DNA of 32,894 nt from Pseudomonadota bacterium. GTDB taxonomy: Bacteria; Desulfobacterota; Desulfobacteria; Desulfobacterales; C00003106. A program made the position numbers and the translations under genes. The notes under the pieces were generated by a model that saw only the letters and a program-made list of their open reading frames with translations, did not search any database and had not been told where the DNA came from. The stretch covers positions 1 through 32,894 of the forward strand of contig JBDRFJ010000121.1 in assembly GCA_043818915.1 (NCBI GenBank), read 5' to 3'. Positions 3,588-15,754 of the stretch are shown in pieces. Positions within the stretch are counted from its first letter, which is position 1. The number at the start of each line of letters is the position of its first letter.

Positions 3588-3768
3588 GAGGATAGAGGTC
3601 AGAAGACAGAGGTCAGAGCGCCTGCGGCGGAGAGGTGAAACGAAAGAAGATGAGAAGTTGTGAAGGTGAGAAGGTGGGACTTTTCCCCAACTTCCCAGCC
3701 TCCCATCTACCCATCTTCATCAGTTCCGTTCTCTGACCTCTATTCTCTGACCTCTATTCTCTGTCCTC
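3588..3768. repeat. Long imperfect palindromic element. The arms are built from tandem GAGGTCAGA-type units around a GGGACTTTTCCCC centre. The right arm forms the last ~14 codons of dxs.
   Basis: The left arm 3588-3620 (gaggatagaggtcagaagacagaggtcagagcg) is the near-perfect reverse complement of the right arm 3729-3768 (gttctctgacctctattctctgacctctattctctgtcctc). Inner purine-rich and pyrimidine-rich segments are also roughly complementary. Confidence 0.75.
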
Positions 3769-8128: not shown

Positions 8129-8226
8129 AAATTTAGGAATTTAGGGATTTAGGAATTGGGGATTTTTCCCCTCCGTCAAGTTCTTATAATCCTTCAATCC
8201 CCACATTCCTTAATCCCTAAATTCCT
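8129..8226. repeat. Inverted pair of the dispersed AATCCCC-AATTCCTAAATCCCT-AATT motif flanking a GGGGATTTTTCCCC centre. It lies ~45 bp upstream of the xseA start.
   Basis: 8129-8165 reads aaatttaggaatttagggatttaggaattggggatt. Its reverse complement matches 8196-8226, aatccccacattccttaatccctaaattcct. The arms are built from TTAGGGAT/TTAGGAAT 8-mers. Confidence 0.75.
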
Positions 8227-8280
8227 ATAACGTCTGATAATGTATATTATGTAAACTTTGGCCTGGATGCAATCATATCT

Positions 8281-10729: not shown

Positions 10730-12127
10730 TTACTTTTTAAAATCCTTGGGGCTCAGGTTATATTTTTTAAGTAGATTGTAAAAGTCTGCCCGATACTTTG
10801 AGGCCATCTCTGACGCCCTGGTTACATTTCCTTTGGTTAGCTCAAGCAGATTAATCAGATAACCTTTTTCGAACTCCCCCTTGGCATCTTTCAATGATTT
10901 TGGTTGCAGTTCGTTTGGGACAATGTTTTTATGCGGCAAAACATCTTCTTCTGTAATTACATTCTTTGTGTTCATTGCAACCGCATATTCAATAGTATTT
11001 ACCAGCTCCCGTACGTTTCCGGGCCAATCATGAAGCATCAGTTTCTGAATAGCTCCCGGTGTAATGTCGGAGATATCTTTTTTCATCTCTTTGCTGTATT
11101 TTTTCAAAAAATGTTTAGCTAAAGCCGGTATATCTTCCTTTCTTTCCCTCAGCGGAGGCAGACAAATAGGAATAACATGTATTCGATAAAAGAGGTCTTC
11201 TCTAAAAAGTCCGTTTTTTACCTCTTTTACAAGGTCCTTATTGGTTGCCACAATCAATCTTGCATCTACATCTACTGGTTTTTCCGCCCCTACCGGATGG
11301 AACTGGTGGACCTCTAATACTCTTAACAGCTTTGCCTGAAGAGAGGGAGACATCTCCCCGACTTCATCAAGAAACATTGTCCCACCGTGAGCCTGTTCAA
11401 AGAGTCCACGCTTATTTCGAACAGCGTTAGTAAATGCCCCTTTTTTATAGCCAAAGAGTTCGCTTTCAAGGAGAGTATCGGGTATGGCGGCACAGTTTAC
11501 AGCCACAAAAGGGTCTTCCTTTCTGTGACTGCTCAAATGGATTGCTTTGGCGATCAACTCTTTTCCTGTACCGCTTTCACCATGCAGATAGATGGTAGAA
11601 TCGGTCTGCGCAATGCGGGCCACCTGCTGGAGCACATTCCGCATTTTCTCGCTTCGGGTCACGATATTTTTAAAATCATACTTTTCCTCGAGGCTACCCT
11701 CCAGTATCTTAATTTCTACAGCCAGCTTGCGTTTTTCCAGCGCTTTTTCGATATGAGAAAGGAGGTCCCGCGCATCAAACGGTTTTAAGAGGTAGCTGTA
11801 AGCCCCTCTTTTCATTGCATCTACCGCATTTTCAACACTGCCATGAGCGGTGAGAATGATAACCGGAAGATCCGGATTTATCGCATGAAGCTCCTCCATT
11901 AAACTGATCCCATCCGTACGCATCAATTTCAAGTCGACAATTGCGAGGTTAAAAACATGCTTTTGGGCAAGCTCAAGCGCCGCGTCTTCCTTCTGTGATA
12001 TTACGGCTTCATATTTTGCCGCCTCTATCCTTGTTTTCAACAGTTCGAGAAGGTTCTTATCGTCATCCACGATTAAAATTTTTCCAAGCGACATATTACT
12101 CAGTCCATTCTTTTTTCTTTTTTTCAA
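10730..12127 (-). CDS. Sigma-54-dependent response regulator (NtrC family: REC plus AAA+ sigma-54 activation plus Fis-type HTH)
   Basis: Receiver region (ILIVDDDKNLLELL...VDLKLMRTDG), Walker A (GESGTGKE), the GAFTNA motif (sigma-54 GAFTGA equivalent), and a C-terminal HTH (GNVTRASEMASKY). Its start overlaps the end of the upstream TPR gene. Confidence 0.93.
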   Translation of the reverse strand: MKKRKKNGLSNMSLGKILIVDDDKNLLELLKTRIEAAKYEAVISQKEDAALELAQKHVFNLAIVDLKLMRTDGISLMEELHAINPDLPVIILTAHGSVENAVDAMKRGAYSYLLKPFDARDLLSHIEKALEKRKLAVEIKILEGSLEEKYDFKNIVTRSEKMRNVLQQVARIAQTDSTIYLHGESGTGKELIAKAIHLSSHRKEDPFVAVNCAAIPDTLLESELFGYKKGAFTNAVRNKRGLFEQAHGGTMFLDEVGEMSPSLQAKLLRVLEVHQFHPVGAEKPVDVDARLIVATNKDLVKEVKNGLFREDLFYRIHVIPICLPPLRERKEDIPALAKHFLKKYSKEMKKDISDITPGAIQKLMLHDWPGNVRELVNTIEYAVAMNTKNVITEEDVLPHKNIVPNELQPKSLKDAKGEFEKGYLINLLELTKGNVTRASEMASKYRADFYNLLKKYNLSPKDFKK

Positions 12128-12908
12128 GTTCGATATCGACCTGTTTCATCTTCTCAAGAATTTCCAGTACTCCTATCCATATTTTTGCCCGTTCCACCAT
12201 CGGACTTTTTGGATGGTTTGACACAAGCTCTTTGAAGTAGCCAAGAGATTTTTCATAATCTCTCTTTGCGTTCCCATAATGCGAATATACTAATCCTAAC
12301 ACAAAAAGGGCCTCATCTTTTGGCGAATCCTCTCCGGTCAAATCAAGAATTTTTTGGCTTTCCGCTATGGCCCTTTCATAGTCTTCCCGGCCTAAAAGCT
12401 CTTCGGCATGATCAAGAAATCCCCCTATCTGTTCCTCGTATCCAAGAGGTTTCTCAAATTTTCTTTTCTTTGTTTTTTCAATTAGTTGAAGTGTATCTAT
12501 CCATATCCTGGACTCCTCGACCAAAAGACTTTTAGGATAATCTGATACGACCTTTCTGAAATAGGCAAGAGATTTTTCATAGTCTTTTTTTGCCTTTCCA
12601 TAATGTGCATAGATCAATCCCAAGGTGAACAGAGCCTTGTCTCCCGGCGATTTATCGCCTGCTAAATCCAGTGATCGTTGGCTCTCCTGTGCCGCCTTTT
12701 CAAAATCGCCCTGTTCCAGAAGTGTCTCCGCACGGGAAAGATGCTCATACGCGCTCCACATGTTTTGTAAGCCCGCGCATGTGGCGCATCCGGAAAAAGT
12801 AAGCAGAATCAAACCGGCAAGGTAAAAGTAAACGTGCTTCCTTGACCCTTCTTGCTTTTTGCCCATATCTTCCCTCCATGGACATTTATAATATTTTTTG
12901 CTATACAA
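12096..12908 (-). CDS. TPR-like lipoprotein with an internal ~100-aa tandem duplication. The probable start is 12866.
   Basis: Lipobox LLTFSGC follows MGKKQEG (second Met). Two near-identical modules occur: DKALFTLGLIYAHYGKAKKDYEKSLAYFRKVVSDYPKS and DEALFVLGLVYSHYGNAKRDYEKSLGYFKELVSNHPKS. It sits between the kinase and the sigma-54 regulator and overlaps both. Confidence 0.75.
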   Translation of the reverse strand: MYSKKYYKCPWREDMGKKQEGSRKHVYFYLAGLILLTFSGCATCAGLQNMWSAYEHLSRAETLLEQGDFEKAAQESQRSLDLAGDKSPGDKALFTLGLIYAHYGKAKKDYEKSLAYFRKVVSDYPKSLLVEESRIWIDTLQLIEKTKKRKFEKPLGYEEQIGGFLDHAEELLGREDYERAIAESQKILDLTGEDSPKDEALFVLGLVYSHYGNAKRDYEKSLGYFKELVSNHPKSPMVERAKIWIGVLEILEKMKQVDIELEKKKKEWTE

Positions 12909-14254
12909 AGTCCTAAACCTGTACCTTCTCTTTTTTTATGATCTTTTATTGATACCTGCTGAAATTTATCGAATATGGAAAATAATTTTTTCTCTGGTAT
13001 GCCAGGCCCTGTGTCAGCTACCGAAACAGTCACCTCATTGTCTGCAGAGTCCGCGCTTACCAATATCTTTCCGCCTTCCGGGGTAAATTTAATCGCGTTG
13101 CCAAGCAAGTTTCTTAATACATGAAGAATACGTTCACGGTTTATATTCACCTCCGGCAATATTCCGGAGATTTTTCCTGTAATCTGTATCTTTTTCCCTT
13201 CTACAAGTGGCTCTGTTTCAAATATTACCTGATTAACAAGTGGGGCAATACTCATTATTTCGAAATCTTCCGGCATCATACCCGCCTCAATTTTTGACAG
13301 ATCGAGGAGAGAATTGACAGAGCGTATCAAACGGTTACTTTCTTCACCGATAATAGTCAAAAGTCTTTTTTGCTTATCTGAAACATTCCCCCCTACCCCT
13401 TCTAATAATAAATTAGTCCCCTCTCTTATCGATGTCAGCGGTGTACGAAGGTCGTGAGAAACATGGGATAAAAAATCGGCCTTCATTTGATCTAACTTTT
13501 TCAGCTTGGCACACATAAAATTAAAAGAAGTTGCCAAATCATTTACTTCAGGCGGAGATGACAAGTCTAAATATCCGTCAAACACCCCGCTTTGAGCTAT
13601 TTTTTTAGTCCGATCTTTCAATAAAGAAAGGGGCTTATTGATACTCTTGGTAATTATCAAAGAAATGAAGAGTCCGACAATCAACGTGGTTATTGTCATA
13701 ACCAAAGACATCTCAGCGGCCCTTTTGCCGGTCGCCTCCAGGATCTTCATTTTCCCGTCGATATTAGCTTGTGTATAAGTATTTAATTCTTTTAAAATAT
13801 CTATTACGCTATTAATATACTCCTGTTTTTCTTCTTTATAAGAAATTCCTGAAAGGTTTTTCCCCTCGTTCAGATATTGCACCTCTTTTTCAAAAAGAGA
13901 AAGATACTCGGAGTGGAATTCCTTTATTCGCCCTATCAAAGCGCCTTGATCCGAGTTAGAATCATAAGAGAGCCCTGAAAGATATCGGACAAAATCCTGT
14001 TTTGCTATCTGAAATTGTTTATAAAAACTTTCGTCTCTCGTGAGAAGATACTTATTTTCATATCGGATCTGGGATAACAATGAGTCTCTAATCTTAGTTA
14101 CATCATTTATCGCAACATTGTCCACGTTAAGGATAAGATGTGTAAGATTGTTGAGACGGTACAGCTGGTAAATCGTATACGTGCTCAAAGCCACAACAAG
14201 CAAAAAAATACTCAGGTAGCCAAGAACAAGACGCTGAAAAATCGTAAGTTTCAT
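12809..14254 (-). CDS. Sensor histidine kinase (periplasmic sensor, HAMP, HisKA, HATPase_c)
   Basis: Two TM segments flank a ~150-aa periplasmic domain. H-box FLSHVSHDLRTPL, N-box LRNLLGNAIKF, and G-boxes DTGPGIP and GTGLGL. Confidence 0.92.
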   Translation of the reverse strand: MKLTIFQRLVLGYLSIFLLVVALSTYTIYQLYRLNNLTHLILNVDNVAINDVTKIRDSLLSQIRYENKYLLTRDESFYKQFQIAKQDFVRYLSGLSYDSNSDQGALIGRIKEFHSEYLSLFEKEVQYLNEGKNLSGISYKEEKQEYINSVIDILKELNTYTQANIDGKMKILEATGKRAAEMSLVMTITTLIVGLFISLIITKSINKPLSLLKDRTKKIAQSGVFDGYLDLSSPPEVNDLATSFNFMCAKLKKLDQMKADFLSHVSHDLRTPLTSIREGTNLLLEGVGGNVSDKQKRLLTIIGEESNRLIRSVNSLLDLSKIEAGMMPEDFEIMSIAPLVNQVIFETEPLVEGKKIQITGKISGILPEVNINRERILHVLRNLLGNAIKFTPEGGKILVSADSADNEVTVSVADTGPGIPEKKLFSIFDKFQQVSIKDHKKREGTGLGLCIAKNIINVHGGKIWAKSKKGQGSTFTFTLPV

Positions 14255-14368
14255 CAGTTGATGGTTTCGTAAAAAGTCTTTTGAAACTGCCTCTTTTGAG
14301 AGTTGAAAAACCTTACTTGTACGTTACAGTATACATTTAGAAGATACAACTATTTTTTGTATGGTGTT

Positions 14369-14533
14369 TTATGAGGCTGTCCGAGAATTCTGATCCTACT
14401 GCAAAAGAGTGAGAAACGGCCCAAATTCCCGCAAGTTTTCGTCAAATAGGCCTGCTATTCTCCTCAAATTTGCGAAAATTTGGGCCGTTTCTCACTCTTT
14501 TTCGTTACGGACATAATTCTCGGACAGCCTCAT
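14369..14533. repeat. 165-bp near-perfect palindrome (65-bp arms, 35-bp spacer), a MITE-like or structured-RNA element in the intergenic region upstream of the kinase operon
   Basis: Left arm 14369-14433 (tatgaggctgtccgagaattctgatcctactgcaaaagagtgagaaacggcccaaattcccgcaa) versus the reverse complement of 14469-14533. The arms share identical 20-nt and 25-nt blocks and are flanked by TA. Confidence 0.8.
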
Positions 14534-14584
14534 AGCGCTGAAATTTGGTAGCTTGTGAGTTCAATCTTGAGAACCTTCTCGGGT

Positions 14585-15754
14585 TCATCTTATACTTTCA
14601 AGATAGGCAAGATCCTGGTCCTGGGTGTTTTTCGTGCCAATGGCCACTATTTTGGTATTCGGTTGATCATCCTGTTGGAAATAAATTCTTCCTGAATAAG
14701 AAAAGTCCACCTCCAGAATATTCATTTTTCCGCCTTTGCCGAATACCCTTCTTTTGACAGATACAAGAGAGACGTCTTCATTGAGCCTGTGTATAATCTC
14801 TTCAGCTTTGAGCTGAAATTCATTGGTGAGTGACAGAAACCCCATAATGGCCCGCTCAGTAAAGACTAAATTTTTATAAAGTGCTTTAAATCTCTTGCCG
14901 GTAGTTTCAACTTTTTTCTTCTTTTTCTTTGGCTTTTGGAGTTTTCCTTTCAAACGACCCAATTCTTCCCTTAATTCCAGCACCTCATATTCAGTTGCTT
15001 CCTTCACGTCTTTTTGGGTATCTAACCCTTCCTCCAGTTTTTCAATCTCTTCCAACAATGCGTCAACATCTTTTGAAAGATCTGTTTTCTCTTTCTTAAG
15101 ACCCGCGATCCTTGTTAAGTAGTCGACCTGGTTGGCTTTCACAGCTTTTAGTCCGTTCTCAGTCTTGCGCAACCGCCTGGTAAGACCCCGAATGACCGTT
15201 TCGTGTTTTGCTTCTTGTCTCTCTGTTTCTCTAATCCCCTTTTTTATAAACCTTTGGACGATTAAGACAAAAATCAAGACGTAAAAAACTATGACGCTGC
15301 TCGACAACAACCCGTAATATTTGATCTCAACATTAACGAGGAGTGTCAGGCCTTCGTTTAAAATTTTGTAGTTTTCCACACTGACTTCCACGTAATTAAG
15401 ATTTTCAGCCTGAAATTCCGAGAAACCGTCTGTTCCCTGGAAGTTTTTGTGATCCATTTCAAACTGGCTTGGATAGAGTATGCGATCATCTTTTGTCTTT
15501 ACCAGTATGTCTATTTTGACACCCAGTTTGTATTTAAGGCATCGGCTTAAATATTCCTCTATATTCCTGTTGATTTCTTCCTTGACTGTGTATCGACCTT
15601 CATAAAGGGCCTCGTCGTTCTGGATAAGGATCTGATTGAGTTGAGATTCCTCATGATTATGAAAGTAGTTTTCCAATACCTGGAGCGTCAGGATATAGCA
15701 TATGGGAGGCAGTAGAATGCTAACCAACAATATTTTGAGGGGAAAACGTTTCAC
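14585..15754 (-). CDS. Hypothetical bitopic membrane protein: two TM segments flank a periplasmic domain, followed by a cytoplasmic coiled coil with a poly-lysine tract
   Basis: TM1 ILLVSILLPPICYIL and TM2 LLSSSVIVFYVLIFVLIV. The coiled-coil region (LEEIEKLEEGLDTQKDVKEATEYEVLELREELGRLKGKLQKPKKKKKKV) precedes a C-terminal ~100-aa domain. No catalytic motif recognised. Confidence 0.55.
   Translation of the reverse strand: MKRFPLKILLVSILLPPICYILTLQVLENYFHNHEESQLNQILIQNDEALYEGRYTVKEEINRNIEEYLSRCLKYKLGVKIDILVKTKDDRILYPSQFEMDHKNFQGTDGFSEFQAENLNYVEVSVENYKILNEGLTLLVNVEIKYYGLLSSSVIVFYVLIFVLIVQRFIKKGIRETERQEAKHETVIRGLTRRLRKTENGLKAVKANQVDYLTRIAGLKKEKTDLSKDVDALLEEIEKLEEGLDTQKDVKEATEYEVLELREELGRLKGKLQKPKKKKKKVETTGKRFKALYKNLVFTERAIMGFLSLTNEFQLKAEEIIHRLNEDVSLVSVKRRVFGKGGKMNILEVDFSYSGRIYFQQDDQPNTKIVAIGTKNTQDQDLAYLESIR

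Follow-up and report, generated by a model that had tools for sequence, protein, structure and literature searches.

Correia elements (CREE/NEMIS) of Neisseria are MITEs of ~100-155 bp that insert at TA, lie between genes, form a hairpin when transcribed, and occur in full-length and internally deleted forms, as does the family described below. They have a TIR sequence of their own, a central IHF site, documented effects on transcripts, and are cleaved by RNase III. Bacterial MITEs derived from IS630/Tc1-mariner elements have TA-centred targets and CTAG-like flanks. MITEs derived from IS1182-family ISs are already known as well, and the element reported here probably adds one to them. MITEPye1 of Paracoccus yeei is an IS1182-derived MITE with 18-bp TIRs, 4-bp repeats and a long stem-loop (PMC11578231), and the MITEs derived from ISMac2 (IS1182 family) in Methanosarcina acetivorans are 160-169 bp long, with 14 copies of the 160-bp form, IR 26 and DR 4 (PMC3852290).

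The palindrome analysed here lies in a Desulfobacterales contig, of which a stretch of 32,894 nucleotides (the window) was examined, and we consider it likely to be a MITE copy that is mobilised in trans by an IS1182-family transposase. Like MITEPye1, it is small, non-coding and intergenic, with a predicted long stem-loop and ~18-bp TIRs resembling those of IS1182-family ISs, and trans-mobilisation has been proposed for MITEPye1 as it is here. The two belong to different host phyla, and no sequence relationship between them was seen. While MITEPye1 has clear 4-bp direct repeats and a partner, ISPye18, in the same species, the window copy has a TA duplication only, and no partner of its family was found in the Desulfobacterales loci examined. 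The copy number of the window family (at least 9-11 loci per fragmentary MAG) appears higher than that of MITEPye1 (1-3). Judged by their description, the ISMac2-derived MITEs are like the window element in size, probable parent family and multi-copy status, with the 4-bp duplication class that the flanks of the window family favour, and unlike it in being archaeal and in having an identified autonomous partner. The TIRs of Correia elements are unrelated to those of the window element, for which these elements are a useful model of possible RNase III processing and promoter effects. The IS630/Tc1-mariner-derived MITEs resemble the window family in targets and flanks, but the termini of the window family match IS1182-family ISs and not IS630.

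A repeat search found the two arms of the palindrome at 14370-14449 and 14455-14534, each 80 nt long, 81% complementary to each other and separated by 5 nt. The palindrome picked out earlier in a sequence-only reading is therefore present, but that reading numbered it one base low (14369-14533 instead of 14370-14534). The 20-nt block TATGAGGCTGTCCGAGAATT is exact at 14370-14389 on the plus strand and 14515-14534 on the minus strand, the 25-nt block AAAAGAGTGAGAAACGGCCCAAATT is exact in the left (plus strand) and right (minus strand) inner stem blocks listed in Table 1, and neither had a match in shuffled sequences. Both blocks had been claimed in the same reading, as had a diverged patch between them, which exists with 13 nt instead of 12, and a TA on both sides, which we found at both ends. 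Inside the TA-flanked unit of 165 bp lies a 159-bp core, GAGG...CCTC (14373-14531). The longest ORF overlapping the 165-bp element has 35 aa, in keeping with the supposed lack of coding capacity, and the size of the element is within the MITE range (under about 300 bp). Either strand of the palindrome is predicted to fold into a single long hairpin, at -102 to -104 kcal/mol and with z = -15 to -16, and none of 200 shuffles was as stable. A search of Rfam with the element gave nothing at the gathering threshold, and the matches far below it were to unrelated families (miRNA precursor, sRNA, IRES). The 32.9-kb window holds one copy of the palindrome.

Table 1. Positions of the probable MITE copy, its parts and its neighbours in the window
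Feature	Position	Strand	Remark
Complete copy of the probable MITE including flanking TA (TATGAGG...CCTCATA)	14370..14534	+	Orientation matching family members at 93-96%
Left terminal inverted repeat GAGGCTGTCCGAGAATT	14373..14389	+	Same as IS1182-family IS ends
Right terminal inverted repeat (AATTCTCGGACAGCCTC on the + strand)	14515..14531	-	Inverted match to left terminus
Left TA of duplication	14370..14371		Flanking tetranucleotide TTAT (14369-14372)
Right TA of duplication	14533..14534		Flanking tetranucleotide ATAG (14532-14535)
Left subterminal patch CTGATCCTACTGC	14390..14402	+	Non-complementary to right patch
Right subterminal patch TCGTTACGGACAT	14502..14514	+	TCGyTACGG motif conserved in distant relatives
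Left inner stem block, 25 nt	14403..14427	+	Exact complement of 14477-14501 in the window copy only
Right inner stem block	14477..14501	+	Pairs with 14403-14427
Private patch of 5 substitutions, consensus TGTCTCG to GGGCCGT here	14482..14488	+	Sole differences from family consensus
Asymmetric central core TTTTCGTCAAATAGGCCTGCTATTCTCCTCAAAT, hairpin tip	14436..14469	+	Kept in metagenome MITE families otherwise 62-71% identical
Promoter-like block upstream of the kinase gene	14316..14360	-	Conserved in orthologous loci; context, outside the MITE
GlrK-like sensor kinase (CHASE3, HAMP, HisKA, HATPase_c)	12809..14254	-	First operon gene, 115 bp from the element
389-aa gene upstream, without solid Pfam match	14585..15754	-	Stop codon 50 bp from the element

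The element belongs to a dispersed repeat family. An exact 18-mer, TGAGGCTGTCCGAGAATT, was used to scan species-representative genomes (one genome per species) and returned 47 loci, of which five Desulfobacterales/Desulfobacteraceae MAGs account for 25 (11 in CSMAG_340, 9 in CSMAG_2399, 3 in CSMAG_1126, and one each in CSMAG_2398 and 4484_190.2); the matches outside these MAGs were isolated and single, in unrelated taxa and without the element sequence. BLAST and inspection identified ten full-length copies including the window copy, and three more that are cut by contig ends. The nine full-length copies from the MAGs are 93-96% identical to the window copy one way round and 73-75% the other, which gives the element an orientation that a true palindrome would lack. 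Internally shortened forms of ~72 bp and ~110 bp also occur, together with a 34-bp form that is a minimal palindrome made of the two termini alone. The copies are dispersed between genes, with 16 of 20 overlapping no ORF of 110 aa or more and the other four touching the edge of a naively called ORF by 1-74 nt. Their flanks are mutually unrelated, many of them lie at contig ends, and they have no consistent orientation relative to neighbouring genes. The suspicion of a MITE-like element was thus borne out by ~25 dispersed loci in related genomes and by an empty site in three syntenic relatives (see below), and the copy-number comparison suggested with it showed the element to be multi-copy and dispersed, at 25 loci in five MAGs. 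BLAST of the element against plasmid and phage collections gave no match, and viral contigs scanned with a 17-mer had two isolated matches, neither with a second arm. No description of the family was found in the literature searched.

Some loci carry more than a single copy. In L170 (1459-1700) two MITEs are arranged head-to-tail with one CTAG in common, in L005 (5766-5819) a 34-bp minimal palindrome is inserted beside a solo terminus, and in L049 (3359-3470) two copies of ~110 bp overlap. The record names of two MITE-bearing CSMAG_340 contigs, L026 and L042, give a coverage of ~126-138x versus ~14x for the rest of the MAG, and these contigs may be a plasmid, a multi-copy region or mis-binned.

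Comparison of the window copy with the consensus of the nine other full-length copies revealed five differences, all in 14482-14488, and none of the five substitutions is present in any of the nine. Each of the five makes a previously mismatched position pair with the left arm, which raises the complementary positions from 60 to 65 of 82, and the predicted fold of the window copy has -93 kcal/mol compared with -59 to -64 kcal/mol for typical copies. This clustered change explains why the window copy looks like a near-perfect palindrome. Since five independent mutations with such an outcome are implausible, we infer that the patch arose by a single templated conversion, for which quasipalindrome template switching and conversion from the inverted arm are the candidate sources. 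Quasipalindrome template-switch mutations, reportedly described by Ripley and, in E. coli, by the Lovett laboratory, are clustered substitutions that perfect an imperfect inverted repeat. The patch at 14482-14488 has the same outcome, judged here by comparing copies, and gene conversion from an inverted copy would leave the same change; the patch is a clean natural candidate for quasipalindrome correction. The distant relatives L057, L138, L170 and L061 each have their own arm sequence, yet the two arms of each match each other. The two arms of this MITE lineage may evolve in concert, with the window copy as an arm-homogenising event caught in the act, and on this rests a reading of the hairpin as not incidental, which we regard as rather improbable (see below).

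To define the origin of the termini, metagenomes were scanned for exact matches to TAKGAGGCTGTCCGAGAATT, which returned at least 120 loci. Most of the matches listed are not MITEs, and the motif is the end of 1.6-1.9-kb elements. When a second end was searched with up to 4 mismatches and the ends were placed 1.3-2.2 kb apart, at least 44 complete TIR-bounded elements were found among the matches listed; 43 of the 44 have an IS1182-like gene (tblastn), and 40 of the 44 are flanked by CTAG/CTAG. Two of the encoded transposases scored 318 and 407 bits against the NCBIfam model NF033551, 'IS1182 family transposase' (cut-off 270), and the clade comprises 7468 proteins at E < 1e-40, with the Pfam domains DUF772, DDE_Tnp_1 and DDE_Tnp_1_6. 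The terminal 17 nt of the MITE are identical to the transposase-distal end of these ISs and have at most 4 substitutions relative to the other end. Two loci fetched by protein similarity alone, L175 and L176, have TIRs that differ by only 1-2 substitutions, and their flanks are again ctag. The search for a parent IS therefore led to 1.6-1.9-kb elements that, among the metagenome matches listed, share these termini and encode IS1182-family transposases, and the Tc1/IS630 parentage that the sequence-only reading had entertained was not supported. Given the IS1182-type termini and the published IS1182-derived MITEs, we file the element as an IS1182-type MITE and not as an IS630/Tc1 derivative.

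Short elements with these termini are found beyond the Desulfobacterales family, with a dozen others (68-277 bp) among the metagenome matches listed. One of 277 bp (L083) matches the end of the soil IS copies L071/L144 over its left ~55 nt, as expected if it were an internal-deletion derivative of such an IS. At 62-71% identity, L170, L057, L138 and L061 are more remotely related to the window element, with which they have in common CTACTGC on the left, TCGyTACGG on the right and the core TTTTCGTyAAATAG..CTATTCkCCTCAAAT. The CTACTGC motif of the left subterminal patch is conserved in L170, L057, L138, L073 and L101.

A tblastn search found no IS1182 transposase gene, and hence no partner, in the window or in the 30 Desulfobacterales loci examined. 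When an IS1182 copy of the host MAGs was sought by protein homology and through protein clusters, metagenome contigs alone came back, and BLAST of the MITE arms against the full-length ISs retrieved gave no similarity beyond the 17-nt termini. We rejected L035, L046 and L034 as parent ISs, as they have solo or cassette TIRs beside ordinary genes, and L080, in which a truncated left arm lies beside a 511-aa ORF with no NCBIfam match. The 493-aa ORF of L116 was rejected as the transposase: it is weakly IS66-like (75 bits, cut-off 180), with no other tblastn match among the loci examined. A MITE-type terminus adjoins this ORF at 2374-2393 of L116, which is probably a different IS inserted beside an IS1182 end. 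In Desulfobacteraceae bacterium 4484_190.2, a 1032-bp segment (L035, 4092-5123) has the same inverted termini and the flanks CTAT / CTAG. The segment contains a terminator-like hairpin and a 277-aa ORF that by eye is crotonase/enoyl-CoA hydratase-like, and it looks like a mobile insertion cassette carrying a passenger gene. A similar-looking segment with two non-transposase ORFs is seen at L101 (3-1398).

From these comparisons we propose that the element, whose 159-bp core is non-coding and has 17-nt terminal inverted repeats at its ends, would not move by itself. A DDE transposase of the IS1182 family would recognise the terminal repeats and move the MITE in trans, and insertion would occur at short TA-centred intergenic targets (NTAN, mostly CTAT/CTAG) with duplication of target bases.

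The window copy lies in an intergenic gap between two minus-strand ORFs, upstream of a kinase/TPR/NtrC operon, and the gap measures 330 bp (14255-14584), exactly the length given for it before. The kinase gene is followed by the genes for a TPR protein and a sigma54-type (NtrC-type) response regulator. Relatives of the kinase carry the JGI name GlrK, and an exact look-up returned no exact match on record for the window kinase. The order in 10730-14254 (kinase, small TPR protein, sigma54 activator) resembles that of enterobacterial glrK-yfhG-glrR, and a RimK-like ATP-grasp gene, conserved in all orthologous loci, comes next after the GlrK-like operon. The window has two other intergenic clusters of inverted repeats, 3588-3618 / 3731-3761 and 8134-8161 / 8200-8227, composed of short motifs that are rich in G or in AT (GAGGTCAGAG-type and TAGGAATTTAGGGATT-type), and the former cluster sits in a region with many gaps relative to L050.

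The closest relatives of the kinase (96% amino acid identity) are on three contigs from independent samples, L050, L051 and L052, which run collinear with the window for as much as 14 kb, with a nucleotide identity of 92-98%. The element is missing from all three at the syntenic site, and an empty site was thus found where the earlier proposal to compare orthologous regions had pointed. Two distant orthologous loci, L053 (78% kinase identity) and L054 (74%), are also without it, and when the MAG loci were compared all against all to find more empty sites, no informative overlaps turned up. On the minus strand the empty site reads CAGCAC-TA-CAAAACCATAC, with CAAAACC after the TA, and the filled site reads CAGCGC-TA-(TGAGG..161 nt..CCTCA)-TA-AAACACCATAC, with AAACACC after the second TA. 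By alignment, the net gain of the filled over the empty site is 163 bp, and the filled site has two TA where the empty site has one. The insertion would postdate the separation of this lineage from the closest relatives sampled, and it lies with the upstream stop codon on one side and the conserved promoter-like region of the GlrK-like operon on the other. Outside the five-base patch, the window copy is identical to the family consensus, and this points to a recent insertion.

The promoter-like region is a block that the alignment shows to be kept in four orthologous loci, between the element and the kinase start. Its consensus, ACAAAAAAyAGTTGAATcTTCTAAATGkATaCTGTAACGTACAAG, is found in loci with only 74-96% kinase identity, and it includes a -35-like TTGTAT (14344-14349; TTGTAT in the window instead of TTGAAT), a 17-nt spacer and a -10-like TAACGT (14321-14326). 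The block is a candidate promoter or operator of the GlrK-like operon. The MITE lies ~10 nt upstream of it and 20 nt upstream of its -35-like hexamer. On the other side of the element, a 24-nt insertion at 14564-14587 (minus strand TGAACCCGAGAAGGTTCTCAAGAT) with a small GAACC/GGTTC hairpin is missing in L050-L052. The stop codon of the 389-aa gene marks its start, copies of a short repeat (AAGATGAAC / AAGATTGAAC) border it, and it may have arisen by duplication or slippage. A scan for consensus promoters and terminators found its only terminator-like site inside this separate insertion (14566-14583, plus strand).

By default, we assume that the window copy is neutral or has a mild effect on transcription, and we read it as a tolerated insertion just outside functional sequence. 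A local effect on expression, which would be an addition to the MITE explanation and not an alternative to it, is unlikely, and the same holds for the forms it might take: uncoupling the kinase operon from upstream transcription, stabilising the upstream mRNA, or displacing upstream promoter elements. The sequence-only reading had suggested a mobile promoter, a terminator or a long hairpin RNA as possible roles. The position of the insertion, close behind the upstream stop codon and close to the conserved -35-like hexamer, the exceptionally stable predicted hairpin of the window copy, and a weak outward sigma70-like site scored in the right arm on the plus strand (TTCTCA-17-CATAAT) would be compatible with such an effect. 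However, the scan found no sigma70-like site facing the kinase, there is no terminator-like U-tract after the hairpin on either strand, the family copies have no preferred direction with respect to their neighbours, and a site just outside a conserved block is what purifying selection against disruptive insertions leaves. A read-through transcript with a stem of ~78 bp could block or pause the polymerase or be cut by RNase III, to which we give a small chance. An equally slim chance is given to the idea that the hairpin is not incidental, either because it is needed for IS1182-type mobilisation or because loci such as this one have come to use the element as an RNase III-sensitive insulator.

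The flanks of the family bear on how the target is duplicated. TA is at the centre of the flanking tetranucleotide (NTAN outside GAGG) at 53 of 54 family ends, and the tetranucleotides at the 54 ends include CTAT (25), ATAG (11), TTAG (6) and ATAT (6). Perfect 4-bp direct repeats flank 7 of 18 complete copies versus 3.9 expected from random pairing (p = 0.036), and in 6 copies these repeats are non-palindromic (CTAT/CTAT, ATAG/ATAG). The inner and outer flank bases are associated (C..T vs A/T..G, Fisher p = 3e-6), which fits an asymmetric 4-bp target CTAT read from both sides, and inverted arrangements (CTAT...ATAG) are no commoner than chance. As a whole, the flank pattern of the family speaks for duplication of 4 bp (NTAN). 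The window copy is flanked by TTAT/ATAG, the empty site is GTAG, and the central TA alone is demonstrably duplicated; the 163-bp gain may be read as 159+4 or 161+2. Because three substitutions relative to the empty site fall within 8 bp of the junction, the original target is not exactly reconstructable. Two other models, blunt insertion into CTAT|ATAG and a 3-bp duplication, were rejected because neither agrees with the 163-bp net gain and the empty site. In the family, direct arrangements (CTAT/CTAT, ATAG/ATAG) are mixed with inverted ones (CTAT/ATAG), and this mixture is not fully explained by a simple TA or 4-bp duplication model. Recombination between copies, short-read assembly chimeras or template-switch extension of the palindrome are possible sources of it.

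A 2-bp TA duplication is a hallmark of IS630/Tc1 rather than IS1182, and the IS630/Tc1-mariner family, which duplicates TA, often prefers CTAG. The TA on both sides of the window copy, the one TA at the empty site, the many family copies that read C-TA-(T...A)-TA-G and the CTAG flanks of the related ISs, for which C-TA-G with a duplicated TA is another possible reading, are what would be seen if the MITE had come from an IS630/Tc1-mariner-type element and been moved by it. We nevertheless consider this origin quite improbable. Among the matches listed, 43 of 44 complete elements are of IS1182 type and none with these termini encoded anything else. The non-palindromic 4-bp direct repeats, present in 6 copies and enriched overall, are not predicted by a 2-bp duplication, and an outer C is found at only 2 of 20 G-type ends, against a CTAG preference. 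In addition, IS1182-derived MITEs with 4-bp repeats are documented (PMC11578231, PMC3852290), and 4-bp duplications have been described for IS1182-family ISs and their MITEs (PMC3281130, PMC11578231, PMC3852290), including ISPse1 (PMC3281130).

It is very improbable that the palindrome is a dedicated, positionally conserved cis-regulatory hairpin or structured RNA of the GlrK-like operon, such as an attenuator, a terminator or an sRNA gene. The predicted fold is very stable on both strands and the element is intergenic, upstream of a regulatory operon, as this explanation requires. However, three close and two distant relatives lack the element and keep the promoter-like block, the same sequence is found at ~25 unrelated loci, there is no Rfam match, and no U-tract follows the stem on either strand. 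The element is the opposite of a single-copy sequence conserved in position, being multi-copy elsewhere and missing from five orthologous loci, and with its absence from the orthologous sites the regulatory-hairpin reading is rejected. An assembly artefact from a chimeric or fold-back join is barely credible: short-read assemblers can create or mis-join palindromes and many family copies lie at contig ends, but both window flanks are collinear with three independent assemblies, and at least four independent MAG assemblies contain near-identical copies of full length. REP/BIME elements and IS200/IS605-type elements (PATE) have no TIRs and no target duplication, and their subterminal hairpins are recognised by a Y1 transposase; both were rejected for the window element, which has exact TIRs, a duplicated TA and DDE IS1182 partners of its TIRs.

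Taken as a MITE copy probably mobilised by an IS1182-family transposase, the palindrome should not be annotated as a regulatory RNA or as a terminator of the kinase operon. This result will not surprise a transposon specialist. If co-option as an RNase III-sensitive insulator were true, such loci would have an insulator between the upstream gene and the GlrK-like two-component operon. Repeats like these break MAG assemblies, as is seen from the many copies at contig ends, and MITE copies, whose presence or absence differs between the window and its relatives, are usable as strain-level markers. The analysis defines a MITE family in uncultured marine-sediment Desulfobacterales and links it to an IS1182 clade that is very large and widespread in the environment, has the termini GAGGCTGTCCGAGAA and uses CTAG as its target.
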